Source of the DNA: a phage
DNA length: 64,000 nt
Assembly: GCA_024673055.1 (NCBI GenBank)
Contig: GCA_024673055.1_4537.1
Reading direction: 5' to 3' (one strand)
The notes beneath the pieces were generated by a model. It saw only the letters and a program-made list of their open reading frames with translations. It was not told the origin of the DNA and did no database searches. This document shows positions 23,906 to 58,983 of the stretch, piece after piece. Position 1 is the first letter of the stretch. Each line of letters opens with the position of its first letter. The position numbers and the translations under genes are program-made.

Positions 23906-24142
23906 ATGGGTAAACTAATTATGACAGTGGCTATTGATTTTGATGAAGTAGATGAAAGCCTCAACCTTTCACTTTCTACTGACGTAGATGGCGAAATGGA
24001 TAATATTGAAGCAGCTACTGCTCTTTTCTTCAAAAAAGCCATTGAAGTTTATGCCGAACATGCTGCAAATCAGGCAGTAGATTACGGTGGTATCGTGCGA
24101 GCTTTAGTTCACTCTACCGAGGGCAATGACTGGGAAGATTAA
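23906..24142 (+). CDS. hypothetical protein
   Basis: 78-aa ORF. Confidence 0.4.
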   Translation: MGKLIMTVAIDFDEVDESLNLSLSTDVDGEMDNIEAATALFFKKAIEVYAEHAANQAVDYGGIVRALVHSTEGNDWED

Positions 24143-24345
24143 TGGCTTACAATTATTACTGCATTTATGCACATGAAAAGAAAAAAGGTGACACTGGGAC
24201 TAACGTTTATGCAGAGTCCGAATCTCATGCAAAAGAGATTGGTGCTATCCTTTTATCACGCTGGACTGGAAATAATTACAGTGCAGAAGATATGTTTGCA
24301 GAAGTGGATTCTAGTATCCAAGAAGACAACATAACAACTACGTGA
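24142..24345 (+). CDS. hypothetical protein
   Basis: 67-aa ORF coupled to upstream stop. Confidence 0.4.
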   Translation: MAYNYYCIYAHEKKKGDTGTNVYAESESHAKEIGAILLSRWTGNNYSAEDMFAEVDSSIQEDNITTT

Positions 24346-24390
24346 TATACTTATACTCCCTTTTCGGAGGGAGTATTTTAAGGAGGGATT

Positions 24391-24585
24391 ATGCAGAGCG
24401 GAGAAGAACTTTTAGAGAAACAATTCTCAACGCGTCAACAAGCTTTAAGTTATATGGTTTTTCTAAGCAATCTTGATGTGAATGAGATACTTTTACGGCG
24501 CGAAGGTAATTTCTGGAGCGTTAAATATCATGCAACAAGGTCTGTAATCTACCTGGAAGAGGCGGAATTCTCTTTGGTAGAATGA
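24391..24585 (+). CDS. hypothetical protein
   Basis: AAGGAGGGA SD; preceded by stem-loop CTCCC-TTTTCG-GAGGGAG. Confidence 0.4.
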   Translation: MQSGEELLEKQFSTRQQALSYMVFLSNLDVNEILLRREGNFWSVKYHATRSVIYLEEAEFSLVE

Positions 24586-38773: not shown

Positions 38774-39046
38774 TCACCCCCAAGAAATATTTATATATCT
38801 TACAATGTTTGCACTGTCTAAAGCCATGTTTGCACCACACCCACGCTCGCGCCAGTAACTAACAATACCTTCACAGATACTCTCTTGTATCTTCTTATCA
38901 CTTGGCATTTCTAGTATAAGACTTGGGTTGTGGATGTTTATGTTATAATATCCTTCCTCTGCGGCTTGAGCTACCAATTTACTTACTTTTTCAAAGTACG
39001 GGGAATTAGTGGCATCTGCCATTGTTTTTAAGGTTTGTCTATCCAT
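38774..39046 (-). CDS. hypothetical protein
   Basis: 90-aa track ORF. Confidence 0.45.
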   Translation of the reverse strand: MDRQTLKTMADATNSPYFEKVSKLVAQAAEEGYYNINIHNPSLILEMPSDKKIQESICEGIVSYWRERGCGANMALDSANIVRYINISWG

Positions 39047-39444
39047 TATTCTGCCTCATCGTAGAAGAAATCCAACTCTTGTTCCAGTTGTTTAACTTGA
39101 TCCTTAACCCACTGTACACGTTTTTCATTAAACATGCAACGTTTTTCCTTACACTCTTGCTCAAAAGATTTTGCTGTGTTAAATGGGAAAGTTGTATCTA
39201 AACCAGCGTTTTCAAAACTGGCTAATTGCATACCATAAACAGAATATGCTAAAGAATGCTCTGCCCGAAATTCATCACTTATATACATACGCAGACCTCG
39301 GCATAAGCCAACATCAGCGTAACCACTTTCTCTTGGAAAGAGACGGAGGTGTTCTAACCAATTATTATAGAAATCTAAAAGAATCCTTTTACACTTCAAA
39401 TCGATTGTCATAAAAAGTTTCTCCTTCATCAAACAAGTTGGCAA
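39046..39444 (-). CDS. paralog family B (GLC...PF...WVK family)
   Basis: VGLCRGL, TFPFN, RVQWVKDQV motifs; start uncertain. Confidence 0.45.
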   Translation of the reverse strand: MPTCLMKEKLFMTIDLKCKRILLDFYNNWLEHLRLFPRESGYADVGLCRGLRMYISDEFRAEHSLAYSVYGMQLASFENAGLDTTFPFNTAKSFEQECKEKRCMFNEKRVQWVKDQVKQLEQELDFFYDEAE

Positions 39445-39811
39445 GATTGTTCACGGCAATCTGGGTGGAAAGAAGACAACTGTTTGCAGACACATAAGCA
39501 CGAGCTATTTTGTAAACATAGGCTTTCGTATTACAATTGTCTAGGATCGGAAGACTTTCGTCGATAGCATCTATAACACTAAACATCACATCTAAAACTT
39601 TAATGGTGAGTGTTGTATTTGTATCTTCGTAACCTTTTTCAATCAGACCTGAATAGAAAGTATAGTCCTCAACAGTTCGTCGTTTAAATTGGCGCATAAA
39701 ATCGGAACCATCTGTAGCAGAATTGAACAAATTTTCAAAAAATACGTCCCATCCGGCAAAAAGTGCTGACAGCATGATTAAGTGATCTACAGATTCATTT
39801 TCTTGTTTCAT
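39389..39811 (-). CDS. hypothetical protein
   Basis: 140-aa track ORF. Confidence 0.45.
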   Translation of the reverse strand: MKQENESVDHLIMLSALFAGWDVFFENLFNSATDGSDFMRQFKRRTVEDYTFYSGLIEKGYEDTNTTLTIKVLDVMFSVIDAIDESLPILDNCNTKAYVYKIARAYVSANSCLLSTQIAVNNLANLFDEGETFYDNRFEV

Positions 39812-39819
39812 ATCCTCTC

Positions 39820-40497
39820 CTATTTAATGTTCAGTCTGGCACACAAACGAGAAACAGTTTTAGCATCCCATTTACCACCACGTGCTGTTGCTATTTTCTT
39901 ACTATTGAATTTTTCAGCAATAGTTTTGTAAGGTGTATTTAAATCTCTAAGGATCTCCAAACGTTCACGGAATGTCTCTGCAAAAGCGTCTGCTTTAACA
40001 GAGTTGTATTCCATTTTTCCTTTTCTACGTGCAGCGGCAGTTTTAGGATTAGCACTGCCTAATAAAACACCTTTGCTTTTTGCTACAGCAAGACCCTTTT
40101 TAATACGATCAGCAATACCTCTAACTTCTTGTTCAGCCAGAACAGACAGAAGCTGTATAACCATTTTATCTGCGTCTGGCATGATGGCTATCTTAACATC
40201 GATCATTTCTAGAAGAGTTGCTACGGAGGCGTTGTTACGACCCAAGCGGTCAACTTTAGCTACCAATAAAGTTGCTCCGGTAGCTTTACACATTTCAACC
40301 GCTTTAACCAGTTCCTTACGTTGCTTCCAATCGCCCTTACCCGAATAGTATTCAGAAAATTGACCAATAACTTCCGCATCAGGCACAGAGTCTAAGAAGT
40401 AACGGATATCGTTCTCCTGGCTCTGCATACCATACTGGGCTTCACCTTTCTTCTGTTTAGACAAACGGCTGTAAACAACAAACTTTTTCATGATCAA
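39820..40497 (-). CDS. serine recombinase (resolvase/invertase family)
   Basis: VYSRLSKQ (catalytic Ser region), LLVAKVDRLGRN, LLSVLAEQEVRGIADRIKKGLAVAKSKG align with Hin/Gin/resolvase core; C-terminal HTH-like tail. Confidence 0.7.
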   Translation of the reverse strand: MIMKKFVVYSRLSKQKKGEAQYGMQSQENDIRYFLDSVPDAEVIGQFSEYYSGKGDWKQRKELVKAVEMCKATGATLLVAKVDRLGRNNASVATLLEMIDVKIAIMPDADKMVIQLLSVLAEQEVRGIADRIKKGLAVAKSKGVLLGSANPKTAAARRKGKMEYNSVKADAFAETFRERLEILRDLNTPYKTIAEKFNSKKIATARGGKWDAKTVSRLCARLNIK

Positions 40498-40501
40498 CTC
40501 C

Positions 40502-40729
40502 TCAATCGTTATCAGGATTCCATTTTACAAACTTGAAGCAGTTATTGTCAAGGAATTTATTGGCATCTTTTTCCTGTTTCCAAACGGTGCATTGTTCTTT
40601 AAGGGCTATCTGCTCATTCTGCACGTCTGATACCGCATTAGCAAAGAGGATCAGAAATCCCAAAAAGACCAACATCAATAACAGATTAAAGAAAGTTTGA
40701 AAACTCATGCATCCTCCCATTTGATCCAC
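40502..40729 (-). CDS. small membrane protein (paralog of 46911..47147)
   Basis: TM helix; WKQEKDANKFLDNNC matches LKHERNAEKFLDLEC in the paralog. Confidence 0.4.
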   Translation of the reverse strand: MDQMGGCMSFQTFFNLLLMLVFLGFLILFANAVSDVQNEQIALKEQCTVWKQEKDANKFLDNNCFKFVKWNPDND

Positions 40730-40956
40730 AGAATCATTTCTTCAACGTAAACCTCTTTACCTTTGTTATTGATGAAAGTGTATTCTATGAACTCCGCTGT
40801 ATACTTTTTGTTGTATTGCTCCGCTGCTGGGATCGGACACTTTGTCATACGTGTCTCAACCCATTGACGATGAATCGTTGCCTTGTTTTTGGGGTCAAAC
40901 GGGTGTAAATAGTGCGGTTCTCCCTCTTGACTATGCCCCATTTTATTCTTCTTCGC
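40705..40956 (-). CDS. hypothetical protein
   Basis: Track ORF trimmed to ATG with GGAGGAGG SD (40956). Confidence 0.4.
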   Translation of the reverse strand, partial: AKKNKMGHSQEGEPHYLHPFDPKNKATIHRQWVETRMTKCPIPAAEQYNKKYTAEFIEYTFINNKGKEVYVEEMILWIKWEDA

Positions 40957-41287
40957 CATGCTGCACCTCCTCCAGACGGTCATACACCCAAGCAAGACGA
41001 TCGAAGTTTTTGTGTTGGGTGCCGGACTTCTTCTCAATCCAATAACAAGGAATCCAACCTGACAGATCCCACTCGCCATCGAACGGATAGTTCCATTCTA
41101 AACCTTCCGCTTCAAACTGCTCTACCATTTCATCAGAGAGGGAAAGATACAAATCTTGGTCTTCCCCGCAATACACTTCCACTGCATGACACAAACCGCA
41201 AGCTTTGATGTTTTCGGGTGGATTTTGACTCATAGCTTGATCCAACCACCACTCATAGAATTCCAACAACATGATACTTGATTTCAT
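40943..41287 (-). CDS. paralog family C (GLC...YPF family)
   Basis: LLEFYEWWL, CGLCHAV, NYPFDG motifs. Confidence 0.5.
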   Translation of the reverse strand: MKSSIMLLEFYEWWLDQAMSQNPPENIKACGLCHAVEVYCGEDQDLYLSLSDEMVEQFEAEGLEWNYPFDGEWDLSGWIPCYWIEKKSGTQHKNFDRLAWVYDRLEEVQHGEEE

Positions 41288-41655
41288 TTGTCTTCCCCTT
41301 TCTCCATAAGCGGCGAAGCCGCGATCATCGACTTATAGACAACTTCGGCTGTTCGGGTTAGCCCCGTCCAGTCCTTCGCTGCCTCCAACATTTCTGAGGT
41401 AGGCTCTTTCGGGACCAAGACATACCCTTCTGGGATACACATTCCACTCTCTTTCTTTTCAGCTTCTTCCGACATAACTTGCCACACTCCGTAGCTGCAA
41501 TTCTCGAACAAACAATAGAGTTCAGATCCTTCATCATCCACGACAATGAAACAGTTCTCATCTGCTACTTTGGCGTTGTAAATCCGACCTATGGTCAAAT
41601 AGTCTCGGACATTAATAAACTTAGAGGCAAGAAACTTCACACGAATGTTTTTCAT
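41284..41655 (-). CDS. hypothetical protein
   Basis: 123-aa track ORF. Confidence 0.5.
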   Translation of the reverse strand: MKNIRVKFLASKFINVRDYLTIGRIYNAKVADENCFIVVDDEGSELYCLFENCSYGVWQVMSEEAEKKESGMCIPEGYVLVPKEPTSEMLEAAKDWTGLTRTAEVVYKSMIAASPLMEKGEDK

Positions 41656-41891
41656 TTCTTAAACTCCGAAAAGCAACCCAAAGAGATGACCCCGCCATTA
41701 TAGACGATAGCAAACTGGCACCCTGTTTTTGTGTCTGTGATGATGTAATCTAAAGCCCCAGTCATGCCAGTTTGAACAAAGCGATCCTTGGTTACAACTT
41801 TTGAGTCCGAGAAGCCGTTAACTTTCGGCACAGTGTCTGCCATAACAGCAGGAGTCACCAGAAACAATGCAATCAGTAATGCCTTTTTCAT
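41652..41891 (-). CDS. small secreted protein (signal peptide)
   Basis: MKKALLIALFLVTPAVMA signal-like N-terminus. Confidence 0.5.
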   Translation of the reverse strand: MKKALLIALFLVTPAVMADTVPKVNGFSDSKVVTKDRFVQTGMTGALDYIITDTKTGCQFAIVYNGGVISLGCFSEFKK

Positions 41892-41902
41892 AAATCCTCC
41901 AG

Positions 41903-42217
41903 TTAGCCTTGAAATGAATTGCGACGACCAATACGGGCACAGCGATCACCTTCATAAGAGGTGAAATCCAAACTCACTCGGAAGCCAGGGTGGGTATCAG
42001 AGATCCCCACATTCTTCACCCACATCTCGAAACTGCCGATATGTAAGGTCATAATGTTTACATACCATTCCAGCGTCACTTCTGTGCCGTCTACACCTGT
42101 GATGTAAAACTCACGAGCGAAATGGGTGTCGTGCTTCTCTTTCTGACGCTCATACTTAGCGATTGCACCTTTCTCAACAGCCGCTTTCAGGATCACTTCT
42201 AATTCTTCTATTTGCAT
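41903..42217 (-). CDS. hypothetical protein
   Basis: 104-aa track ORF. Confidence 0.5.
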   Translation of the reverse strand: MQIEELEVILKAAVEKGAIAKYERQKEKHDTHFAREFYITGVDGTEVTLEWYVNIMTLHIGSFEMWVKNVGISDTHPGFRVSLDFTSYEGDRCARIGRRNSFQG

Positions 42218-42272
42218 GTTCTCTCTCCTCTTGTTGTTGATGCAATCACTATAATATGTCTGACACTCTCTG

Positions 42273-42488
42273 TCAAATGTTTTCTGCTTCCAGTACTACT
42301 CTCTGGATCTGCACATCGTCAATGTTTGCAAGACAAGTCCCTAAGATAAGCCCTGCTCGGAAAGGGGCTTGGAATTTGGAGGAAGCCCCCACTCGAATAG
42401 AATACTCCACACCGCACATAACATAATCTACACGGTACATATTCAAGCCCATGAACATGAGTTCTTCTTCCGACTCTTCGATTTGCAT
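42273..42488 (-). CDS. hypothetical protein
   Basis: 71-aa track ORF (preferred over overlapping 42319..42510). Confidence 0.4.
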   Translation of the reverse strand: MQIEESEEELMFMGLNMYRVDYVMCGVEYSIRVGASSKFQAPFRAGLILGTCLANIDDVQIQRVVLEAENI

Positions 42489-42500
42489 TTTTATCTCCTC

Positions 42501-43055
42501 TTAGTTCCAACTAACGATGATGTGTTTGATAACCCCAAAAACGCTATATTCCGCTGTTGTCAACGTTACATCTAAACCTTTTGCACGCAACATTGTGGCT
42601 ACTACATTCACCCCTTCTTTCTGTTTATCCATCTCTTCGTAAGAAGAAGGGCTGTTACACAAACCAAAACTCGAAGGTTCAAAATATTTTTGGAATTTCC
42701 CCTGTTCTGCATAATCTTCAATCTCCGGCAGAATACAGTCTACCATTTCAGTAAAATGGGAATTTGCTTGCAGTGCTTTACTACGTAGTTTATCACGTAA
42801 ACTTCCCACAAACCCTTCCTGATCTTCTGTTTGCTCTTCTTCACAGAAAGGATGAAGTTCAGCCCAGTCCCAAACGTCTCCCTCTAAAGCAAACGTTGTG
42901 TTGTAGTTGAAGAAGGTGCAACGTGGAAGTTCCCCGTTGAAAGAGTCCTTCAGCAAAATGTATTTCTTACCATTTGCGTGGAAGAGTTCCCCTTTGATAA
43001 CCTTGCCTTTCTCGATATCGCTGTTGGTGGAACGGGTGCAGATAAACTGTTTCAT
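42501..43055 (-). CDS. hypothetical protein
   Basis: 184-aa track ORF. Confidence 0.55.
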   Translation of the reverse strand: MKQFICTRSTNSDIEKGKVIKGELFHANGKKYILLKDSFNGELPRCTFFNYNTTFALEGDVWDWAELHPFCEEEQTEDQEGFVGSLRDKLRSKALQANSHFTEMVDCILPEIEDYAEQGKFQKYFEPSSFGLCNSPSSYEEMDKQKEGVNVVATMLRAKGLDVTLTTAEYSVFGVIKHIIVSWN

Positions 43056-43109
43056 GATTTTCTCCTCTCTGTTTCGATGAGATGATTATGACAAAGACAG
43101 ATCCCTCTG

Positions 43110-43436
43110 TCAACCAATTATTTCTTCTGCTACACGTTCTTTTACCCAGTTCACGCGATCCACATTCAAATGACAACGGCTTCTTTCTGCTTCTAAGGTG
43201 TACTTTCCAAAATTACTGTTGAAAGGCAGCACCATAACCAAACCTTTGTGGTAGAACTGCTCATGCATTTCATCCAGTACAGGTTCGTATCGTTCGCTTT
43301 CTCCCATATCGTAAAAATCATAGAGGTTCGTGCACAAACCTGTGCAACGGGTGAACGGTTCGCCTTCAGGAGCACCAGCTTCCAACCATGCCAAATACGT
43401 GCGGTAAAATGTTAATAGTTCTTCGCTCATTTCCAC
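43110..43436 (-). CDS. paralog family D
   Basis: LTFYRTYLAWLEAGAP, TGLCTNL, VLPFN, RVNWVKERV. Confidence 0.5.
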   Translation of the reverse strand: MEMSEELLTFYRTYLAWLEAGAPEGEPFTRCTGLCTNLYDFYDMGESERYEPVLDEMHEQFYHKGLVMVLPFNSNFGKYTLEAERSRCHLNVDRVNWVKERVAEEIIG

Positions 43437-43639
43437 TCTCCTTCATGATAGTAAACCTCAAAAGAATAGTAAGTGAACATGCTCATTGTAACACCTGCCA
43501 TTTCTGGATCAAAGGGAGTGTTGTTATACATGTCAACCACTGCCTGACCCGCTGCTTTGGCATGTGCTGCCGAATCACAGGCACAAACATCTTTCTCCCA
43601 CGGAAACTTGCCATCGTACTTAAGACGGACAATCCACAT
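43427..43639 (-). CDS. hypothetical protein
   Basis: 70-aa track ORF. Confidence 0.45.
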   Translation of the reverse strand: MWIVRLKYDGKFPWEKDVCACDSAAHAKAAGQAVVDMYNNTPFDPEMAGVTMSMFTYYSFEVYYHEGEWK

Positions 43640-43641
43640 GC

Positions 43642-43869
43642 TTATTCCTCCATCTCAAACCATTCAGGGAACACTTTACGGAAGACACGGGTTGTTTCCA
43701 AAAGGAATTCCAATTCTTTTTCCAGATCTGCGTTCCAATCGTGCACTTTAACATTGATTGCCAATGCACTTGCACGGCGACTTAATTCTTGACAGATTGG
43801 ATCACGCAGAACTATTGAGTCGTAAAACTGACAAACGGCCTCAAGTTCATACCAGTTATAATCCGACAT
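43642..43869 (-). CDS. hypothetical protein
   Basis: 75-aa track ORF. Confidence 0.45.
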   Translation of the reverse strand: MSDYNWYELEAVCQFYDSIVLRDPICQELSRRASALAINVKVHDWNADLEKELEFLLETTRVFRKVFPEWFEMEE

Positions 43870-44195
43870 TATTCATCCTCCTCTGCAATACGATCTCTTA
43901 CCCAATTAATCCTGTCCACGTTCAGGTGACATACCTCTGCATCTGATTCTAAGACATATGCATCGTAGTTCTCATTGAAAGGGAGTTCTTGACTCAACCC
44001 TTTGTAGTAAAACTGTGAGTGCATTTCGTCTGACAAGGTTGTTATAAGGAGATTGTAGCCATCTGCGTGCACATAATCGAACAAGTTGGCACACAAACCG
44101 CAATCTCGCCGAAAAGGTTTACCATCAGGAGCACCAACATCAATCCATGCTAGATAAATTTTATAAAACTCCATCAACCCTGCGCTTGTTTTCAT
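43869..44195 (-). CDS. paralog family E
   Basis: MEFYKIYLAWIDVGAP, CGLCANL, LPFN, RINWVRDRI. Confidence 0.5.
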   Translation of the reverse strand: MKTSAGLMEFYKIYLAWIDVGAPDGKPFRRDCGLCANLFDYVHADGYNLLITTLSDEMHSQFYYKGLSQELPFNENYDAYVLESDAEVCHLNVDRINWVRDRIAEEDE

Positions 44196-44433
44196 TTAGC
44201 CACCTCGTTAGTTTTTCTTGCTCTTTGTTTGCGCGTTCTAAGCTTCTAAACTTTAAACAAAGGGAACGAGAATCCCTACCCATGCACAAGCTTTCATCTA
44301 AGCTGTGCTCCCCAACCAACCAAAGAGAATATGTTTGAACATCTAACCCATAGTTTCTGTCTTTCCATAATCTCACCCCAAGAACATCAAAAGGCGCTTC
44401 CGCGACTAAAGAAAGAAACCGATCTTTATTCAT
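44161..44433 (-). CDS. hypothetical protein
   Basis: 90-aa track ORF. Confidence 0.4.
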   Translation of the reverse strand: MNKDRFLSLVAEAPFDVLGVRLWKDRNYGLDVQTYSLWLVGEHSLDESLCMGRDSRSLCLKFRSLERANKEQEKLTRWLNENKRRVDGVL

Positions 44434-44495
44434 ATTACACCACCTTTCTCACGTTGATAATGTATGTATACCATACATAAAATAAATGTCAAGGC

Positions 44496-44696
44496 TTATC
44501 GACACAGATAGTTGTAACGATCTGCTTTATCCTCTGCTTCAGCAAAGTCAGCAATCAAGGAAGTTTTGAGTTCTTCCAACTCTTTCACCCAAGAGTCGTA
44601 ATCGTTCTGTGTTTCTCCAATAGTTTGGAGAAAACAATCGTCGTAGCCAATAGACATGGCTAACTCGATAATACGTTCCAGTTTTTCTTCCATCAC
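44496..44696 (-). CDS. hypothetical protein
   Basis: 66-aa track ORF. Confidence 0.4.
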   Translation of the reverse strand: MMEEKLERIIELAMSIGYDDCFLQTIGETQNDYDSWVKELEELKTSLIADFAEAEDKADRYNYLCR

Positions 44697-45055
44697 TTCT
44701 CTCCTTCTACAGACTTCTGTTTAACATAGAAGTAAGCACCACGAGCAAGATACAAATCATGTTCAATATCGCTCACAGGAAAACCATCTGGATTTTTAAA
44801 ACCATCTTCTACAGCCAAAATGAGAGATCGTAAACTGATAGCTAACAACTCCATTTGATCTTGTAGTTTTCTATTTTCTGCGTAAAGGTTTTTGCATTTT
44901 TGTTCTGCATTTTTCCATTGTTCTAATGCATGATCATAGCGGTGCATAAGAATAGCTTTTTCTTGTTCACGCTTAAAAGTTTCTTCACAAATGAAATCCG
45001 TGCCTAAACCAGTTTCTTCATCTTTGACAAATACTTCAACAAAATCTTTAGACAT
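44693..45055 (-). CDS. hypothetical protein
   Basis: Track ORF trimmed to ATG 45055 with AGGAGA SD. Confidence 0.45.
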   Translation of the reverse strand: MSKDFVEVFVKDEETGLGTDFICEETFKREQEKAILMHRYDHALEQWKNAEQKCKNLYAENRKLQDQMELLAISLRSLILAVEDGFKNPDGFPVSDIEHDLYLARGAYFYVKQKSVEGEK

Positions 45056-45056
45056 A

Positions 45057-45320
45057 TTATCTCCTATTTGCTTTTGGATACTCCCAACCCTCTGGGAGAT
45101 CTTCTTTACACATCCACTCAAAAGGCCAGCGACAATAACTGTGCCACTTCCCATCGAGATACAAGCAATCTTCATCTACTGGTCCACAAGGGTTGATAAC
45201 TACAACACACCCTTTCGCTCGCCAATATTGAACTATTTCAGGGTAAAAACAAGAAACGTCGGTCCACTCCCAAATACGCTCATCATTCAAACGATATGCT
45301 GCTGGCAATGTTTCTTCCAT
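45057..45320 (-). CDS. hypothetical protein
   Basis: 87-aa track ORF. Confidence 0.45.
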   Translation of the reverse strand: MEETLPAAYRLNDERIWEWTDVSCFYPEIVQYWRAKGCVVVINPCGPVDEDCLYLDGKWHSYCRWPFEWMCKEDLPEGWEYPKANRR

Positions 45321-45324
45321 ATTA

Positions 45325-45771
45325 TTAAACCTCTGTCAAAGAGAACCGCCAATCCTTACTACTACCTACACCAAGGAAGATATAGTCTCCGGTACTAACG
45401 GAATATCTCCAAGCGGGAATCCAATCAGGAATCTCTGGCTTATGGCTGTAGCCATAACGCTCGCCACTCGAATCTGTTGCAATATAATTAACAAATTCAG
45501 GAACCTCTAAAATTTCACCTTGATACTCTACACGCTTGAAGCCATCTTCCACTTCTTTCTCACCTTCTACCAGACAAGCAAGAAGTTTGATGTGAGGGCA
45601 AGTGAAATCTTGTCCTGGATAACGTGAACGGATATCAGTTAACAATGCGATCACAGCATCCGATAACTCTTTATAATCCTCATATCTTACAAATGTGCCT
45701 TCTGTCGGATCATCAGGACATAAACGCCAAACATCGTTGCAGTTTACAGCATAATGTCGCATTTTAGTCAT
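45325..45771 (-). CDS. hypothetical protein
   Basis: 148-aa track ORF. Confidence 0.5.
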   Translation of the reverse strand: MTKMRHYAVNCNDVWRLCPDDPTEGTFVRYEDYKELSDAVIALLTDIRSRYPGQDFTCPHIKLLACLVEGEKEVEDGFKRVEYQGEILEVPEFVNYIATDSSGERYGYSHKPEIPDWIPAWRYSVSTGDYIFLGVGSSKDWRFSLTEV

Positions 45772-46910: not shown

Positions 46911-47147
46911 TTATTTATCTTGCTTGTATCTTACAAGGCGATCACACTCTAGGTCAAGAAATTTCTCCGCATTTCGTTCATGTTTGAGCACAATACATTG
47001 TTCTTTCCAGTCTGTAGCTCTTTGCTGCGCTGCTCCTGGGTCAAAATCCCAAAGCCATGCCGCGAAAAGAACAACCATAACAATTATCAAGAAACTAAAC
47101 ACTATTGGCATTGCACATCCTCCTGTGTAGCATGATCTTTTACCCAT
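46911..47147 (-). CDS. small membrane protein (paralog of 40502..40729)
   Basis: TM helix plus conserved KEQC...AEKFLDLEC segment. Confidence 0.4.
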   Translation of the reverse strand: MGKRSCYTGGCAMPIVFSFLIIVMVVLFAAWLWDFDPGAAQQRATDWKEQCIVLKHERNAEKFLDLECDRLVRYKQDK

Positions 47148-47416
47148 TTTATACGGGCAGCATTCAAATGTAATAGCCCGTTTCTTTGTGCAAAATCATA
47201 TTTAAACCAGTCTCCGTCATCAAACGGGTATTCTTCAGACAACCCTGCTTCTCGAAATTGCATTTGCATTTCATAATTTAGATCATCGTAACCACCAGTC
47301 CAAAGGTAGAGGCAACTACATAATCCTTTATCGTGCCAGAAAGGATTATTATCTGGAGCACCAGCTAATAGCCAGTTATGATATGCCTGATAAAATTCTT
47401 TAAGTTCTTCTGACAT
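47102..47416 (-). CDS. paralog family F
   Basis: LKEFYQAYHNWLLAGAP, KGLCSCL, EYPFD, RIKWVKDH. Confidence 0.5.
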   Translation of the reverse strand: MSEELKEFYQAYHNWLLAGAPDNNPFWHDKGLCSCLYLWTGGYDDLNYEMQMQFREAGLSEEYPFDDGDWFKYDFAQRNGLLHLNAARIKWVKDHATQEDVQCQ

Positions 47417-50443: not shown

Positions 50444-50818
50444 TTATTCAATGCAAGCATTATTTGCATCTTCAATTCTGTCTTTCACCCACTGAAGACG
50501 TAACGTGTTGGTATGACACGCCAAGTTTATACACTCTGAAAGGTAATCCATGCAATCTGCATTGAACGGAAGATTGTAGTCCAACCCTGCACATGTAAAT
50601 TGTTTCCTCATTTCATATTTCAAACGGTCCAACAAACTATCCCGCCATCTTCTATCTTCTTCTCTAGTTGTCTCACCAACAAAATCATCTACATAATCTA
50701 CCAGACAACCGCATAAGCCACTCGTTGTGCGATTCATTGCAGGATAGTTGGCAATCCATGCTTTATAGAAGCGAAGTAATGTTGCACTACTCAACGGAAC
50801 ATTTTTACTCTCTTGCAT
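50444..50818 (-). CDS. paralog family G (first gene of the minus-strand block)
   Basis: LLRFYKAWI, SGLCGCL, NLPFN, RLQWVKDRI. Confidence 0.5.
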   Translation of the reverse strand: MQESKNVPLSSATLLRFYKAWIANYPAMNRTTSGLCGCLVDYVDDFVGETTREEDRRWRDSLLDRLKYEMRKQFTCAGLDYNLPFNADCMDYLSECINLACHTNTLRLQWVKDRIEDANNACIE

Positions 50819-51157
50819 GATAATCTCCTCTCATCGTTAGCCATCTTTCATGGCAATCATCAATCACCAACATCATACGATCAATCTTAAGGAATTACAA
50901 TCGAATTATCATAGGGGATTCCTATCAATTATCCTATATATACCGATTATTTTTGACACCCCACTCTTGTATAAAAAGTAACCCAAAATATCTACGGGGA
51001 GAGATTATTTCGACACACCCTGTTTCATGGCAATCATGGCAAGAATATCTAATAGAATCAATATGATATGGCAAAAATCATGGCGCATACGTAAGAAGTG
51101 CTTAACGCGAATTTTCGGGCCGTCAGGTCCACGCAGCGACAATTCCCAAATATCATG

Positions 51158-51181
51158 CGAATGAGAATAATTATCATTCGT
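51158..51181. repeat. palindromic operator-like box (Fur-box-like)
   Basis: GCGAATGAGAATAATTATCATTCG near-perfect inverted repeat. Confidence 0.45.
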
Positions 51182-51336
51182 ATTCAATGACTTATGCAAG
51201 GCTCATGCCAACATAGCGACAAGGTGGGCCACTTGATTATAAATCACACAAACACTTATTTATCAATGGTTTGGCAACTTCATCATATGACGGAACAATG
51301 TCAACTAATCCCGCCCATGACAGACGGACTATTATT

Positions 51337-51358
51337 TATATGAGAATGATTATTATTT
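51337..51358. repeat. palindromic operator-like box
   Basis: ATATGAGAATGATTATTATTTA, same core as 63829 repeats. Confidence 0.4.
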
Positions 51359-52247
51359 AAACGTTTATTAACATAAAAACCAGAATAAATCAAGAATTTT
51401 CTGATTTTATTTACGTTTAAGAGAACGTGCTCAACATCCTACCGGATCGCCGTTGGCAATCCTCGGGTATTTACGCCCCCATAATTATTGCCATGCTAAT
51501 TATTTCCTTATGTAATTACCACAATGATTATTGTTATTGCGCTAATGTTATGATCTTGGTAATTACATATAATGCTAATAATAAGCCAGCGCAATAAGTG
51601 TAAGCGTCATTACGCTTGCAATTATTGCAAGCTACGCAGTAACAAGAAATAACCATCACCGATGGTTATGATTGTTGGGGTGTAGTTGGCTTATTATTAG
51701 CTCGCTATGTGTCCGGCATAGCGTGCTAATGATAATCCTGGGAATGATTCGTTTTGTAATGATTTCATTCAGTCACTATTATGGCAATAGTTATTATTTT
51801 AATGGTTTCGTTTGTTATTGTTCGTTAGTTGGTTGTTTTGTCGTGTTATCGTTATCTTGCTTAGTATTCATCATGGTTTGATTGTTTGTCGTTATCAATC
51901 ATCTTGCTATTATTCCTTTGATTATGATTAGTTTGCTTATTGTTTTAGGTTGTTGGTTAGTTAGTTGTTGCGAACTATTATCAACATTATAGTTATGCAC
52001 TTATATTGCATAGATAAACATGGATAGATGATAATGGTTATCATTGCACTAGAAAGGAGGTAAAAGGGTGTTTTTGATGGTTTGTTGTTGGTTGTTGATC
52101 GATTTTAACCGCTATAAATGGCTCTCTAACAGCCTGTTACCCTGGGAGGTATGGTTATTCGTTTAATGGTTGATTAGCTCGATACCGCGATTTATTCAAT
52201 TTTGTTCTGTGTCGGTTTTTCATAGGCGAAAGCTATCAACATTGTTC

Positions 52248-52277
52248 GGGCAAAAAGAAAGGGCGCTTGGTGCGCCC
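52248..52277 (-). terminator. intrinsic terminator ending the small-gene array
   Basis: GGGCGC-ACCAA-GCGCCC hairpin (read on - strand) followed by TTTCTTTTT; same hairpin recurs at 52826 and 58301. Confidence 0.55.
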
Positions 52278-52293
52278 CTTGTTTTGTTGTCGC

Positions 52294-53299: not shown

Positions 53300-53533
53300 C
53301 TATTTTTTATAAAATTTTTCTGCTGTGATATTCTTCCCAGTAGGCTTAACCACTTGCAAGATCTTATCATGTGCCGAACGTCCAAAAGAGTAAGATCCGT
53401 ACACGGTAAACCAATAATCCCCGTTCGGTTGAACGGTTACGGCGGCGTACGGTGTACCTCTTTCATTATCCCCGATAAAGTGAGAAACATTACCGTTAAC
53501 ATTTGGTTTAGTGCTTTTAATTTGTTCGATCAT
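53300..53533 (-). CDS. hypothetical protein
   Basis: 77-aa track ORF. Confidence 0.45.
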   Translation of the reverse strand: MIEQIKSTKPNVNGNVSHFIGDNERGTPYAAVTVQPNGDYWFTVYGSYSFGRSAHDKILQVVKPTGKNITAEKFYKK

Positions 53534-53551
53534 GATATAACTCCTAAATCA

Positions 53552-53610
53552 GGCGGGAAACATTCCCGCCCTACGTGATAAATGATAATGTAAGCGTGAT
53601 CCGGTGTCAA
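53552..53610 (-). promoter_or_regulatory. promoter + stem-loop cassette (PeSL-like)
   Basis: On - strand: TTGACA (53605-53610) ... -10 ... hairpin GGCGGGAA-tgt-TTCCCGCC (53552-53570) in leader. Confidence 0.5.
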
Positions 53611-53785
53611 TAGGTAGGATTGTAAAGATTTGATAGTTTATCTCTTTGATGTTTTGTTGTTTGATAGATGTTAGCTATCAATATATAGCGGGGTCGTCCG
53701 GTGATTATCTTCCCCTGCTCCCAGGTGCCGCCCGTTCAATAAGTATAACAAAAAACAGGACAAAAACAAGCCCTGTTTATTTATC

Positions 53786-53920
53786 TTAAAACCAGTTGCC
53801 AACCGTTTCCAATAGGTCACTGACTACCAGGACAACATTAATCAGCACATGTTCAACCATGAAAGGGATAAGCGCCAGCGTTGCTACTACGATCCCCATT
53901 GTGATGATTACCTTTCTCAT
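53786..53920 (-). CDS. small membrane protein (44 aa)
   Basis: ATG 53920; hydrophobic helix; below track cutoff. Confidence 0.3.
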   Translation of the reverse strand: MRKVIITMGIVVATLALIPFMVEHVLINVVLVVSDLLETVGNWF

Positions 53921-53922
53921 GG

Positions 53923-54207
53923 TTAGCGGCTTACGTAAGCTTTACCGTTTACGGTCATCGGTATGGCCTCAAGGTCTGGATCTTCCTTAAGGTCGCGTGC
54001 AAGCTCACCGCAGCGGATACCCTCGAATCCGTAGTACTCTGTTGTGCCGTCCTGGAAAGTTTTAGCGGCAAGGCATAGGCGATAATTAACGCCGATCCGG
54101 TTCACTGCGTTAATATCGGTTAACGTGATGGATTCTGGCAACTCTTTCGCCATTACAGGCGCGTTAATACCAACAACCAGGGCAACTACTGCGATCATCT
54201 TTTTCAT
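53923..54207 (-). CDS. secreted protein (signal peptide)
   Basis: MKKMIAVVALVVGINAPVMA signal peptide. Confidence 0.5.
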   Translation of the reverse strand: MKKMIAVVALVVGINAPVMAKELPESITLTDINAVNRIGVNYRLCLAAKTFQDGTTEYYGFEGIRCGELARDLKEDPDLEAIPMTVNGKAYVSR

Positions 54208-54262
54208 GCTTTCTAGCCTCTTCCTATTGCGTTTAATGGGGCGTTACCGCCGCGCTTATGGT

Positions 54263-54499
54263 TTATTGATTGATGTTATAATGAAAATTATTTTCTTCAA
54301 TAGCTTTTAAAATAAAAGCCGTGATCGCTTTCGTGTCTACTTGTTCGAACGTATCGGAATAGCACCAATAATGATCATCCCCTACTTTCGGCGGGTAAAC
54401 CTGGACAAGGAGATCGCCACCTGGTTGATCTATAAGCTCAACATGCAAGCCGGATGATTCAGCGGTTTTAACGGCGGTTAATACTGTTGCAATACTCAT
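54263..54499 (-). CDS. hypothetical protein
   Basis: 78-aa track ORF. Confidence 0.45.
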   Translation of the reverse strand: MSIATVLTAVKTAESSGLHVELIDQPGGDLLVQVYPPKVGDDHYWCYSDTFEQVDTKAITAFILKAIEENNFHYNINQ

Positions 54500-54543
54500 A
54501 ATCTTTTCCTTTCTGATGTGGGGCGTTGCCGCCCCTTTGTTGA

Positions 54544-54843
54544 TTAGATCGCTGTTTCCAGTAGTTCGGCTAACGTCTTACCGCCTGATAGTTGGTCTAA
54601 CGTTTGCTCTTCTGGCAAGAAATTAGCTGATATTAATCCGACTTGATTTCCTTTGTGCCAATTAGCTTGACGGATGATTCCATCCTTTAAAGATTTTACC
54701 GCCATTGTGCAACCGTCGCCAAATGATTCATTTTTATGATCCATCACTTCATAAGCGCCCAGCTTGCTACTGTTAGGCACCATTAACGCGAATACATCAC
54801 CAACAACCAGTTTTTCTACGGTAATAATAGCGATAGTTTCCAT
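54544..54843 (-). CDS. hypothetical protein
   Basis: 99-aa track ORF. Confidence 0.45.
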   Translation of the reverse strand: METIAIITVEKLVVGDVFALMVPNSSKLGAYEVMDHKNESFGDGCTMAVKSLKDGIIRQANWHKGNQVGLISANFLPEEQTLDQLSGGKTLAELLETAI

Positions 54844-54921
54844 TTTACTTTCCTCATTATCGGCGGCACCATTGCCGCCCTACGCATTAAATATAAGTTA
54901 TCTAAGAGATTAGATCAAGGA

Positions 54922-55113
54922 TTATTTTGTAAAGATTACAGCTTCATCAAAATTTTCAACATAGTAAGCAAGCTCTTCATTTGCTGCAACCATTCCTAAA
55001 AGTTGGCTATAAGATAAACCTTTGATCCCTTCCTCGTTGTTTAATGCTTCGATGATTTCATCAACGGGCGCAAAAAACATGTTATTCGATTCCAGATAGG
55101 TGATAGTTTTCAT
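54922..55113 (-). CDS. hypothetical protein
   Basis: 63-aa track ORF. Confidence 0.4.
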   Translation of the reverse strand: MKTITYLESNNMFFAPVDEIIEALNNEEGIKGLSYSQLLGMVAANEELAYYVENFDEAVIFTK

Positions 55114-55134
55114 AATGTTTACCTTTTACAGTGA

Positions 55135-55190
55135 GCGGCACCATTGCCGCCCTACGTGGTAAATATTAGCACACTGGCGATCTGTGTCAA
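55135..55190 (-). promoter_or_regulatory. promoter + stem-loop cassette (PeSL-like)
   Basis: - strand TTGACA (55185-55190), -10 near 55162-55167, hairpin GCGGCA-ATGG-TGCCGC (55135-55150). Confidence 0.55.
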
Positions 55191-55196
55191 TACTTT

Positions 55197-55583
55197 TTAT
55201 TCAATATAAATCAAATTATCTTCACCAATGTAAGCCGACACGTCCGGCATGAATTTAGCGGCATTTGTTAGGCGGTTCGCCGTGTTAGTGGTGTATATTT
55301 CAGGTCGATCCCAAAAGCCTACGCCGTGACTGTTACGGGTAAAATGTAAATCATTTCCGATCTGGTTGGCTGTTGCGCCGTCGCTCATTGCCTCAGAGAT
55401 AGCGGCAAGATTAGCATTAATAAAGGCTGTTACATCCTGGGCGATCCGTTTGTCCGCGCTAGGAGAAAAATCATAATCGTCTAAGTTATCAATAAAATTA
55501 CCTTCATGATCCCTTGCTGATTCAGCAAAAATAAAGGCTTCTTTATAGCCGTTGATGACTTCGTTAATGATTTCTGTTTTCAT
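55197..55583 (-). CDS. hypothetical protein
   Basis: 128-aa track ORF. Confidence 0.5.
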   Translation of the reverse strand: MKTEIINEVINGYKEAFIFAESARDHEGNFIDNLDDYDFSPSADKRIAQDVTAFINANLAAISEAMSDGATANQIGNDLHFTRNSHGVGFWDRPEIYTTNTANRLTNAAKFMPDVSAYIGEDNLIYIE

Positions 55584-55804
55584 GCTGTACGCTCGACAAT
55601 AATAATGGTTTGCGGGATCTCGTTTTCTGCAACTATCAAGGCTTTTTTCTGCGTAATAGATATTTTAACACGTTGTAAACTAGCGGTAAAGTCTTTCATT
55701 TCATTGTGTGCGGACTTCGTGCAATGCCAGATCTCAGGCTTACCAATTTGTAAGCCGCGTAAAAATTCCGTTTTTCCTATTTTGTTCGTGATCATTTGTT
55801 TCAC
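55580..55804 (-). CDS. hypothetical protein
   Basis: 74-aa track ORF. Confidence 0.45.
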   Translation of the reverse strand: MKQMITNKIGKTEFLRGLQIGKPEIWHCTKSAHNEMKDFTASLQRVKISITQKKALIVAENEIPQTIIIVERTA

Positions 55805-55805
55805 C

Positions 55806-55910
55806 TTAACCGATACCGTGGGAAGATAGGATCATGTTAGCCATAGTTGCAACCACTCCAACCGATAACGCCAGGCCCACTATTACAACCGTGAAAATTT
55901 TCTCTAACAT
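55806..55910 (-). CDS. small membrane protein (34 aa)
   Basis: ATG 55910; hydrophobic; below cutoff. Confidence 0.3.
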   Translation of the reverse strand: MLEKIFTVVIVGLALSVGVVATMANMILSSHGIG

Positions 55911-55928
55911 GATTCTACCCTCATTAAT

Positions 55929-55990
55929 GGGCGTTGCCTTATTGCCCCGCCCTACGAAATACATTCTACCCGATTTATAATTGTTGTCAA
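55929..55990 (-). promoter_or_regulatory. promoter + stem-loop cassette (degenerate)
   Basis: TTGACA at 55985-55990 (- strand); imperfect GC-rich hairpin. Confidence 0.4.
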
Positions 55991-55991
55991 A

Positions 55992-56261
55992 TTATTTTTT
56001 CAAGCTTGACCACTCAAAACACGGGGCGATCTCGTTAAAACTTGCACCCTGTAAAGCACATAATTTTTTAGCAATAGCCGCCGTAACCTGGCGTTGTACG
56101 CGCGGATCTGCTACTGATTGGAGAAAGTAGGCGGCTTTATATGTGATCATGCTTTCGCCTGTTTCCTTGTTAACATGATGCACTATTTTAGCCTTATCAT
56201 CTTTTACCAGGATGTAACCGGATTCGATGGCCTTGATTGCAACGTCCAATGATATTTTCAT
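55992..56261 (-). CDS. hypothetical protein
   Basis: 89-aa track ORF. Confidence 0.45.
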   Translation of the reverse strand: MKISLDVAIKAIESGYILVKDDKAKIVHHVNKETGESMITYKAAYFLQSVADPRVQRQVTAAIAKKLCALQGASFNEIAPCFEWSSLKK

Positions 56262-56308
56262 GATTTACCTCTTTATTGACGGCGGGGAATACTCCCCCGC
56301 CTCATTAA

Positions 56309-56479
56309 TTATTCTTCATCGTCGCTGTTATAGTATTCAATGCCATTTTCATCGGTTACGGTGATGTTAACGCCACCGATAGCAACACGATCACGGGCAA
56401 ACGTCATAGCTTCATTTAAATCTTCAGACCAAAAAATATTGTGACCTTTGCGCGATACATAAAACATAGTCGGGATCAT
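56309..56479 (-). CDS. hypothetical protein (56 aa)
   Basis: Track ORF 56309..56563 trimmed: N-terminal 28 codons are translation of the conserved cassette hairpin (YHIGRRNGP). Confidence 0.4.
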   Translation of the reverse strand: MIPTMFYVSRKGHNIFWSEDLNEAMTFARDRVAIGGVNITVTDENGIEYYNSDDEE

Positions 56480-56498
56480 GATTTGTTTCTCTTCTGTT

Positions 56499-56563
56499 GT
56501 GAGCGGTGGACCATTCCGCCGCCCTATGTGGTAAACTTTACTACGTTGTTTGCGTGCTGTCAA
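56499..56563 (-). promoter_or_regulatory. promoter + stem-loop cassette
   Basis: TTGACA 56558-56563 (- strand); hairpin GGCGGTGGACCATTCCGCCGCC. Confidence 0.5.
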
Positions 56564-56564
56564 A

Positions 56565-56849
56565 TTATTTTTTAATGTTTTGCCCTACAAAATTAATCAT
56601 TTCCTTAAGCTGTCTCTCTGTCATGATCGTACCTGGTAACTCTTCTTTAATTTCTTCCGGTAAATAGATATTACCGCGCCAGGTTAACAAACAACCGTTT
56701 TGATCTTCGCAGATAGAATAAGAAAACATCCACTCGCAATCATTTTCAAGCTCCCAAAAACACAAAAAGTCTTCTTTCCCTAAGTTTTCAACGGTTAAAC
56801 ATAATCCGCGACGTGCTGCATAATTAGTTAGGCTTTTTGTAATTTTCAT
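56565..56849 (-). CDS. hypothetical protein
   Basis: 94-aa track ORF. Confidence 0.45.
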   Translation of the reverse strand: MKITKSLTNYAARRGLCLTVENLGKEDFLCFWELENDCEWMFSYSICEDQNGCLLTWRGNIYLPEEIKEELPGTIMTERQLKEMINFVGQNIKK

Positions 56850-56870
56850 GATTTTTCTCTCTTCTTGTGA

Positions 56871-56926
56871 GCGGCACCATTGCCGCCCTACAAGATATAT
56901 ATTATCAGACTAGGCGGACTTGTCAA
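56871..56926 (-). promoter_or_regulatory. promoter + stem-loop cassette
   Basis: Hairpin GCGGCA-CCAT-TGCCGC 56871-56886; TTGACA 56921-56926 (- strand). Confidence 0.55.
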
Positions 56927-56927
56927 A

Positions 56928-57038
56928 CTATTTTTTCTTTTTCTTTGCTTCCAACCGTCTAAAGTTACGGCTTGACTTATTGCGCAAGGCGCTTAGATCG
57001 TCGTACCCTTTCCATGCTTGCATATCTTTCGGATTCAT
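56928..57038 (-). CDS. small basic protein (36 aa)
   Basis: AAGGGGATAAC then ATG 57038; lysine-rich C-terminus. Confidence 0.3.
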   Translation of the reverse strand: MNPKDMQAWKGYDDLSALRNKSSRNFRRLEAKKKKK

Positions 57039-57047
57039 GTTATCCCC

Positions 57048-57209
57048 TTACTTGTTAGCCGGATCATATACCAGGACCGCGCCGCTTGCTTTCACGCTTT
57101 CCGCTTCATAGTTGCGCAGATCGTTTTCTGTAAGATTGAGCGCGATCACTTCCTCGATCTCAACGCCAGCGGCAAGGGCGATCTCTTTGATAATATCTGT
57201 TGTTTTCAT
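57048..57209 (-). CDS. small hypothetical protein (53 aa)
   Basis: ATG 57209; no internal stops. Confidence 0.3.
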   Translation of the reverse strand: MKTTDIIKEIALAAGVEIEEVIALNLTENDLRNYEAESVKASGAVLVYDPANK

Positions 57210-57219
57210 GGTGTGCACC

Positions 57220-57339
57220 TTATAAGATGATTAATAAGATAGTGACAACGAAAGCGATTATACTGATGGCAAATGTCATCTTTTTACCTTCGGATACTGC
57301 CGGATTCTCTACCGTGTATTCTACTGTGTACTTGCTCAT
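57220..57339 (-). CDS. small membrane protein (39 aa)
   Basis: GAGGATTACACG then ATG 57339; C-terminal TM helix. Confidence 0.3.
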   Translation of the reverse strand: MSKYTVEYTVENPAVSEGKKMTFAISIIAFVVTILLIIL

Positions 57340-57362
57340 CGTGTAATCCTCTCGTTTGCTTT

Positions 57363-57420
57363 GGGAACTATTCCCGCCGCCCTATGAATTAAATATACAC
57401 TATCTCAAAATGATTGCAAG
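57363..57420 (-). promoter_or_regulatory. promoter + stem-loop cassette (TTGCAA -35 variant)
   Basis: Hairpin GGGAACTATTCCC; TTGCAA at 57415-57420 (- strand). Confidence 0.4.
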
Positions 57421-57436
57421 CCTTTTTCTAAATTAT

Positions 57437-57721
57437 TTATGCAGTAAACAAACCATCATTTACAACGGCGGCGATGATCTCCCGTGCCATTGATTCAGGG
57501 AAAGGGGCGCTATAATCCTGGCTTGTCTCATCGGTATCGGTGATCCAATGATAAGCTAACGAGTAAAAGCCTTTACTAACTGTTTTCAGTGAGATGATGA
57601 TCACTCGGTCAAGCTTATTGGTGAATGTTGCCGTTAATGTGTTACCCTCCTGCGTCATGTTGGACAAGTAAGCTGGATCATTAATCAGGGAAAACATTAG
57701 CACGGTGTTAGCTTTACTCAT
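57437..57721 (-). CDS. hypothetical protein
   Basis: Track ORF trimmed to second ATG (57721) downstream of cassette hairpin. Confidence 0.45.
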   Translation of the reverse strand: MSKANTVLMFSLINDPAYLSNMTQEGNTLTATFTNKLDRVIIISLKTVSKGFYSLAYHWITDTDETSQDYSAPFPESMAREIIAAVVNDGLFTA

Positions 57722-57741
57722 GATTGCATCCTCAAAGGGGC

Positions 57742-57795
57742 GCGGCACCATTGCCGCCCTACACGATAACTATAACACAATGTAAAACAGGATCA
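57742..57795 (-). promoter_or_regulatory. promoter + stem-loop cassette (TTGATC -35 variant)
   Basis: Hairpin GCGGCA-CCAT-TGCCGC 57742-57757. Confidence 0.4.
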
Positions 57796-57999: not shown

Positions 58000-58021
58000 A
58001 ATATTTACCTTTTTGTATGGT

Positions 58022-58078: not shown

Positions 58079-58084
58079 CCACTT

Positions 58085-58270: not shown

Positions 58271-58300
58271 TTTTGTTTATCCTCTACATGTAAAAAGAAA

Positions 58301-58980: not shown

Positions 58981-58983
58981 GCT

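Follow-up and report, generated by a model that had tools for sequence, protein, structure and literature searches.

The locus raises a question: what does an intact site-specific recombinase, kept under purifying selection, do in a strictly lytic phage lineage? The gene lies in the window, by which we mean the whole 64,000-nucleotide stretch of phage DNA analysed here. A sequence-only reading of the locus had proposed that the product inverts a DNA segment as a switch, resolves concatemers, or marks a captured mobile element; of these options, we find concatemer or multimer resolution the most plausible. The recombinase is already known, being an annotated member of a very common family. The gene has some practical relevance, since phAPEC8-like phages are candidates for therapy and a recombinase counts as a marker of lysogeny in screening pipelines.

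Identity of the phage and distribution of the gene

The window matches phAPEC8/ESCO13-type phages at 94-99% nucleotide identity and, on the basis of this similarity, is assigned to Phapecoctavirus (Stephanstirmvirinae). The genome had been taken for T4-like, which is wrong, and the remark that T4-like phages normally lack such a gene is beside the point because the phage is phAPEC8-like. The placement of the recombinase among small early ORFs of a lytic phage was correct. A tblastn search of the recombinase against 50,697 phage records retrieved 163 records with one copy in each, among them essentially all Phapecoctavirus and Justusliebigvirus genomes. The protein is at least 99% identical in 63 Phapecoctavirus records, 66-80% identical in phiWec181/188, Citrobacter Tr1 and Schickermooser, about 54-57% identical in phi92-like Justusliebigvirus and some Klebsiella phages, and 30-39% identical in ~130-kb Vibrio phages, including some ICP1 isolates. 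As judged from these comparisons, the lytic myoviruses of the phAPEC8 and phi92 type (Stephanstirmvirinae) inherit it vertically as a near-core, single-copy gene. Purifying selection acts on it, as seen in dN/dS ratios of 0.05 against phAPEC8 and 0.21 against phiWec181.

Recombinases 99.6% identical to that of the window are annotated in 60+ phage records, and all independent assemblies found to carry the exact protein have the same arrangement. GenBank labels include resolvase, DNA invertase, serine recombinase, putative site-specific recombinase and recombinase family protein. Four records (OR062524.1, OR062526.1, MT496970.1 and NC_052662.1) call it a 'methionine ABC transporter ATP-binding protein', evidently a mis-annotation. 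It has been speculated that the recombinase keeps concatemers as single genomes (PMC10282059), and the authors of the ESCO5/ESCO13 announcement report finding no recombinase related to lysogeny (PMC5374246). Our literature searches found no functional study of the recombinase or of its ICP1 homologue.

Two records stand apart. In ICP1 isolate 2017_DRC_32 (L005, 4001-4756), a 30%-identical homologue is located in an isolate-specific accessory block, whose genes lack older GP numbers and lie between former gp30 and gp41. In Schickermooser (L017, about 3490-3770), ~8 small indels and frameshifts are scattered over the initial ~250 nt of the gene and affect the stretch that encodes the Ser and DRLGR motifs; the remaining two-thirds, towards the 3' end, are nearly the same as in the window, and the record annotates the C-terminal 128 aa only. 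The 5' third of this copy is either a pseudogene or poor-quality sequence. If the sequence is correct, the frameshifts imply that the recombinase is dispensable for plaque formation.

Gene structure and protein architecture

Features of the locus and related positions are collected in Table 1. The minus-strand ORF spans 39820-40497 and amounts to 225 aa when counted from TTG, which is the length first given for this small serine recombinase. The protein class stands; the length becomes 223 aa. The upstream sequence reads GAGGAG-TTGATC-ATG, and the ATG is the annotated start in both ESCO13 and phAPEC8. Because of the 6-nt spacing of the ribosome-binding site and these annotations, the ATG at 40491 is almost certainly the true start and TTG an unlikely one. 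The candidate promoter agrees with the consensus at 11 of 12 positions and is among the three best in 18.5 kb, suggesting that the recombinase probably has its own sigma-70-type early promoter in this phage. The upstream gap of only 10-70 nt is taken up by this candidate promoter and the ribosome-binding site.

Table 1. Coordinates of the recombinase gene, its predicted domains and related features in the window.
Feature	Position	Strand	Details and basis
Serine recombinase CDS	39820..40491	minus	223 aa + stop, ATG at 40491; PF00239, homologue identity, dN/dS
Ribosome-binding site GAGGAG	40498..40503	minus	6 nt ahead of ATG; abuts TTG
Candidate sigma-70-type promoter TTGACA-N18-TAAAAT	40522..40551	minus	Consensus match only; immediately upstream of recombinase
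Catalytic domain, residues 1-105	40177..40491	minus	Invariant residues; aligned to Tn3/gamma-delta resolvase
E-helix, residues 109-139	40075..40167	minus	AlphaFold2 model; aligns with Tn3/gamma-delta resolvase E-helix
C-terminal helical DNA-binding domain, residues 149-223	39823..40047	minus	PF07508 weak match, motif, Foldseek
Empty counterpart of phi92-type recombinase site	24346..24390	plus	blastp synteny; sequence read
Variable early-gene segment upstream of recombinase	40562..42474	minus	blastn against phAPEC8/ESCO13; phiWec181 flanks
Seven paralogues, early protein of 104-132 aa	37768-38154, 39046-39444, 40943-41287, 43110-43436, 43869-44195, 47102-47416, 50444-50818	minus	

Two neighbouring ORFs deserve mention. 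The plus-strand ORF at 40004-40348 (114 aa), antisense to the recombinase, looks conserved in blastp because it is the shadow of a conserved coding sequence, and is unlikely to be a gene. The minus-strand ORF 40705-41079, which lies in the variable segment a short way upstream of the recombinase, encodes a DUF7202 protein (PF23832, E=7e-34); of ten neighbouring ORFs scanned, it alone has a Pfam match that passes the curated cut-off.

The recombinase matches the Pfam Resolvase family (PF00239) over residues 7-144 with E=8.6e-18 and 65.3 bits against a cut-off of 23.3. It also matches PHROG 125 'DNA invertase' (3e-32) and PHROG 95 'integrase', and its best NCBIfam match is the YneB resolvase-like family. 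Among PDB chains, Tn3 and gamma-delta resolvases were matched with E of about 1e-6 and Gin invertase with 6e-3; because of this difference, we consider the catalytic domain and E-helix to be nearer to Tn3/gamma-delta resolvase than to Gin. The motifs quoted in the sequence-only reading are both present in the translation, YSRLS at residues 7-11 and LVAKVDRLGRN at residues 76-86, and the codon for the nucleophile Ser11 is at 40459-40461.

Six residues, Y7, R9, S11, D81, R82 and R85, do not vary among 27 aligned homologues, which extend down to 29% identity. The residues crucial for Tn3 resolvase are Y6, R8, S10, D36, R68 and R71 (PMC2794168). The equivalents of Y6, R8, S10, R68 and R71 are Y7, R9, S11, R82 and R85, which makes up the catalytic set; the position of D36 is taken by E47 and is E or D in all 27 sequences. 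The catalytic serine and arginines, whose loss would have counted against the recombinase, are thus intact throughout the alignment, and the protein is, as predicted from these residues, catalytically competent and apparently active. This bears on the idea that it is now only a DNA-binding regulator whose recombination activity has been lost. Such a loss would agree with our failure to find sites and with the possible dispensability of the gene in Schickermooser, but selection for DNA binding alone would not preserve catalytic residues that are invariant in 27 homologues, and we regard a pure regulator as very improbable.

A confident AlphaFold2 model (mean pLDDT 87.7), built from the 27-sequence alignment, comprises an alpha/beta catalytic domain of the resolvase type, a long E-helix and, at the C-terminus, a domain of four helices. 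The long helix at residues 109-139 bears out the E-helix region that had been proposed. The proposed C-terminal HTH holds in so far as the C-terminal domain is helical; its type is not HTH_7 but one like the recombinase domain of large serine recombinases (LSRs). A Pfam scan found no match to HTH_7 (PF02796) in the recombinase at E<=0.1. For PF07508 'Recombinase', residues 189-218 gave a weak match that stays below the cut-off (E=0.003). PF07508 is also among the precomputed annotations of four more distant homologues (P0073, P0076, P0082 and P0087). Conserved in the C-terminal domain is the motif IAxxLNxxGxxTxRGxxW, which marks the start of the recombinase domain in large serine integrases. 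In Foldseek, the best full-length match of the model was Bxb1 (259 columns), and alignments to Bxb1, SPbeta-type and PhiC31 integrases covered 249-276 columns; after Bxb1 came the catalytic domains of Sin, a Streptococcus resolvase-family protein and TP901-1, and then gamma-delta resolvase. In sequence and model comparisons, the C-terminal DNA-binding domain is similar to the opening portion of the recombinase domain found in large serine integrases. No zinc-ribbon match was found in the recombinase, which is too short to accommodate a zinc-ribbon or coiled-coil domain behind its C-terminal domain. Proteins of ~220 aa with this architecture are common: searched with the alignment profile, 1.84 billion proteins yielded 3,594 cluster representatives at E<=1e-30, most of them 215-240 aa long and matched over their full length.

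The likeness to large serine integrases and the match to PHROG 95 could be read as signs of an integrase that enables cryptic lysogeny or a carrier state, and some filamentous phages, such as Ralstonia phiRSM, are integrated by small serine recombinases. However, when the gene was searched together with its flanks by blastn, none of 5,426 complete E. coli genomes gave a match. Since no copies occur in these genomes and the zinc-ribbon and coiled-coil domains of integrases are missing, an integrase role is highly unlikely, and the evidence argues against reading the recombinase as a sign of temperate behaviour. A repressor or lysogeny module is, moreover, unreported for phAPEC8-like phages (PMC5374246, PMC10282059).

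Crossover sites, genomic location and local mosaicism

We searched for inverted repeats at three scales, namely 20 kb, the whole window, and a 150.7-kb composite genome consisting of the window and the remaining phAPEC8 sequence; very short or degenerate crossover sites would escape these searches. Inverted crossover sites had been expected within about 5 kb of the recombinase and were not found there: the best inverted repeat within 5 kb on each side scored only 13.0, as against a mean maximum of 14.0 in 100 dinucleotide shuffles, 92% of which reached at least 13.0. Inverted repeats of at least 20 bp in the composite genome comprised only one opposite early-promoter cassette, terminator hairpins and look-alikes of ribosome-binding sites, and the remaining ones were chance 17-18-mers. 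A direct-repeat search returned the same classes, plus paralogous genes. In these searches, no res-like or crossover site was found for the recombinase. No dyad-symmetric element stood out in the recombinase upstream regions that we aligned and read across lineages; common to all were only the promoter hexamers and ribosome-binding sites.

Segment orientation was compared by megablast of window positions 21-45 kb and 44-64 kb against the 50,697 phage records. About 60 related genomes follow the 21-64 kb part of the window co-linearly and on one strand throughout, and the extra megablast 'places' are accounted for by repeated promoter cassettes and record ends. The tail and tail-fibre genes of phAPEC8 all lie on one strand, with no alternative cassettes. 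These results bear directly on the proposal of a DNA invertase that flips a phage segment as a phase-variable host-range or anti-defence switch. The 'DNA invertase' label in PHROG 125 and in several GenBank records points that way, and the intact catalytic residues would allow it. The absence of flanking inverted repeats, however, leaves the proposal unsupported; the co-linear genomes and single-strand tail-fibre genes give no sign of orientation polymorphism, the HTH_7 domain is absent, and Gin is a weaker match than the resolvases. We therefore consider an invertible switch very improbable.

Several other candidates were considered in the course of these searches and set aside. The records of WPEC1, WPEC2 and WPEC4, the three exceptions to the co-linearity, look rearranged near window 25.1-25.2 kb, where they have a patchwork of 75-155-bp pieces in both orientations that we read as an assembly artefact. 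In WPEC4 (L021, PV682947.1), about 6.5 kb at record positions 39000-45580 consist of 75-155-bp fragments from six genome positions, and similar patchwork is present in WPEC1 and WPEC2; it looks like a short-read assembly artefact that inflates the WPEC records to 155-161 kb. A prophage homologue adjoining a baseplate-like gene (P0071) was considered as a Mu-gin-like module, and no convincing inverted repeats were found with it. A P. aeruginosa homologue (P0089) is located at a prophage edge. The 'repeat_region' of anhysbys and tuntematon, considered as a genome terminus, proved to be a 38-bp intergenic repeat instead.

AT-rich near-palindromes AATGAGAATRATTATCATT occur at 51160-51178, 51339-51357, 63830-63848 and 63888-63906. 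They come close to the Fur-box consensus of E. coli: 6 strand-matches were counted where chance would give 0.21, every one of them in a gene-free region. As recombinase sites they were rejected on three grounds, namely agreement with the Fur consensus, a distance of 10-24 kb from the gene, and an arrangement unlike that of a res site. These Fur-box-like sites may serve iron/Fur regulation of phage early transcription, or Fur titration. The region 50820-52290 is also conspicuous, with ~1.5 kb without an ORF of at least 100 aa, a GC content of 0.356, a sign change in GC skew, many short dyads and iteron-like repeats. Its counterpart is phAPEC8 5512-7022, which is without annotated CDS, and it is a candidate origin or regulatory region. 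An Rfam scan of the window, this region included, found nothing.

Across lineages, the recombinase gene occupies two genomic sites. In phi92, a Klebsiella phage and five IMG/VR lineages, it is found between homologues of ORFs 24142-24345 and 24391-24585, inside a conserved operon of PhoH, HslV, methyltransferase, phosphatase and DprA-like genes. In the window, it lies 15 kb from this phi92-type site, on the opposite strand, in the array of small early ORFs. All alleles with 53-60% identity are at the phi92-type site, even where the flanking proteins have diverged to 32-72% identity, and all those with 66-100% identity are in the small-ORF array. Because location follows the recombinase phylogeny, we interpret this pattern as one old relocation rather than a hopping cassette. 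The empty counterpart in the window contains a perfect 24-nt hairpin with a 9-bp stem, ATACTCCCT-tttcgg-AGGGAGTAT, at 24353-24376, and phi92 has a similar hairpin directly ahead of the recombinase start codon.

The existence of two sites gives at best weak support to the proposal of a captured mobile element, since the split follows gene phylogeny. In its fuller form, this proposal holds that promoter and recombinase make up a selfish or relic cassette, captured or self-moving, with no role in phage growth. Each of the two intergenic sites has a clean empty counterpart or precise gene-boundary junctions, relatives are plasmid-borne, the ICP1 copy is confined to an isolate-specific accessory block, and the Schickermooser copy may be a pseudogene. 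A cassette of this kind is nevertheless hard to reconcile with a gene that is always single-copy, near-universal and under strong purifying selection, with invariant catalytic residues and a single old relocation, and our inverted- and direct-repeat searches found no terminal repeats flanking the recombinase. We judge it unlikely.

The surroundings of the gene are mosaic. The 1.9-kb variable segment is replaced by 835 bp in phAPEC8 and is common to ESCO13 and phiWec181; it ends exactly at the recombinase promoter, with phAPEC8-type homology starting at 40561. In phiWec181, proteins of this segment are 92-98% identical to those of the window, and the promoter and 5' UTR also match closely. The catalytic part of the phiWec181 recombinase (L014, 3501-4175) has 80-97% nucleotide identity to window 39820-40491, while its DNA-binding part has only about 50%, as do the downstream genes. 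By this alignment, the phiWec181 allele is evidently chimeric, its DNA-binding domain having been exchanged together with a downstream gene block. Since the DNA-binding domain was swapped and the upstream region kept, the cognate site is probably outside the shared upstream and promoter region.

The junctions at the promoter and within the coding sequence fit ordinary homologous or modular exchange. The paralogues listed in Table 1 share the invariant residues L..F...P...GLC...F..GL...PF...R..WV, and no Pfam family was found for the four members scanned. Upstream of small early minus-strand genes at 53500-63000, there are at least 10 direct promoter-plus-hairpin cassettes (plus strand, ...GAGCGGCACCATTGCCGCCCTACGTGGTAAATAT...TTGTCAA), with one oppositely oriented copy elsewhere in the genome; in phAPEC8 they are annotated as PHIRE/MEME promoters. 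Similar promoter-early stem-loop cassettes have been linked to modular shuffling in T4-type phages. Together, the paralogues and repeated cassettes provide ample substrates for homologous or modular exchange. The density of paralogues near the recombinase had been taken as consistent with recombinogenic activity; the seven copies are real, and nothing ties the mosaicism to activity of the recombinase.

Exchange of the DNA-binding domain between otherwise similar phages, as if targets vary, also suggests a recombinase that acts in trans on the host chromosome, prophages, satellites or plasmids, with the rearrangement benefiting the phage. Predicted early expression from a host-type promoter among host-takeover genes would suit such a role, as would the lack of a detectable cognate site pair in the phage genome. 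No phage-host junctions or phage DNA were found in the 5,426 E. coli genomes, but trans action would leave none. We rate this explanation as rather less probable than the selfish cassette.

Proposed resolvase-type recombination and comparison with known systems

The recombinase matches 109 plasmid records, 102 of them over at least 80% of its length. The full-length plasmid relatives are 35-39% identical, and the plasmids are mostly non-mobilizable, several of them only 5.7-6.4 kb in size. The 5.8-kb plasmid pMaD11 of Marinovum algicola encodes little besides RepA, ParA and a recombinase, which aligns end to end with that of the window (38% identity, E=2e-42). For pLM20P5 of Paracoccus yeei, a multimer-resolution module was listed by the authors as a prediction only (PMC4447125). 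The plasmid relatives are found in contexts typical of multimer resolution.

Because of these plasmid relatives and a catalytic domain closer to resolvases than to Gin, resolvase-type recombination is the mechanism with the best support. Like the homologous recombinases of small plasmids, the phage protein would act as a resolvase, with a pair of directly repeated cognate sites as its substrate. A phage genome offers a single site more than once only when its DNA is multimeric, concatemeric or terminally redundant, and for this reason we propose that the recombinase monomerises or cyclises replicating phage genomes early in infection. This reading, resolvase-type action on a single phage site rather than phase-variable inversion, draws on the plasmid analogy and is put forward tentatively, as the leading candidate but with somewhat less than even confidence.

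Several points weigh against a resolvase. Our searches found no res-like site, and the few nucleotides upstream of the gene leave no room for a res site of the classical kind. Multimer resolution is not an evident need of phages that package from concatemers. The analogy with plasmids consists of 35-39% identity and predicted plasmid functions. Lastly, the recombinase would be dispensable if the Schickermooser sequence is correct. A wider proposal is that the life cycle of the strictly lytic ~150-kb Stephanstirmvirinae includes a conserved step of site-specific recombination, in which the early-expressed recombinase would cyclise or monomerise the phage genome or rearrange host or competitor DNA in trans, and which exchange of the DNA-binding domain between phages would retarget. 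We hold this generalisation to be doubtful.

The closest known counterparts of the phage recombinase are the short plasmid serine recombinases of pMaD11 and pLM20P5, which are alike in length and two-domain architecture and homologous in full-length, collinear alignment. They differ in host, small plasmids as opposed to a 150-kb lytic phage, and in setting: non-coding DNA of 650-680 bp, enough room for res, precedes the plasmid genes, and only 10-70 nt precede the phage gene.

Tn3 and gamma-delta resolvases (PDB 1GDT, 5CY1) align with the phage recombinase through the catalytic domain and E-helix, with D36 replaced by E and with an insertion, SKQKKGEAQYG, after the catalytic serine of the phage protein. 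Their DNA-binding domain is HTH_7, whereas the phage C-terminal domain is longer, at about 75 aa, and LSR-like. They also have a three-subsite res upstream and a transposase partner, neither of which accompanies the phage recombinase, and no repeated dyad sites were found near it. Hin, Gin and Cin, the latter two acting on the Mu G segment and the P1 C segment, share the serine recombinase catalytic fold and a phage-encoded origin. Such invertases rely on a Fis-dependent enhancer inside the gene or close to it. Inverted crossover sites of ~26-34 bp bound their segments, and no such pair flanks the phage recombinase; phAPEC8-like phages, which are strictly lytic, have neither an invertible tail-fibre cassette nor an HTH_7 domain in this protein.

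In its C-terminal motif and weak PF07508 match, the phage recombinase is similar to the beginning of the recombinase domain in the large serine integrases Bxb1, PhiC31, TP901-1 and A118. At 400-700 aa, they carry a full PF07508 domain, a zinc-ribbon and a coiled-coil, in contrast to the 223 aa of the phage recombinase, and the domains missing from the latter control att-site choice in large serine integrases. Cre/loxP of P1 offers a functional analogy only. Cre is a tyrosine recombinase, from an unrelated protein family; P1 is temperate and plasmid-borne, and no lox-like site was identified for the phage recombinase. Yet Cre can cyclise terminally redundant infecting DNA and resolve multimers, a role like that proposed here.
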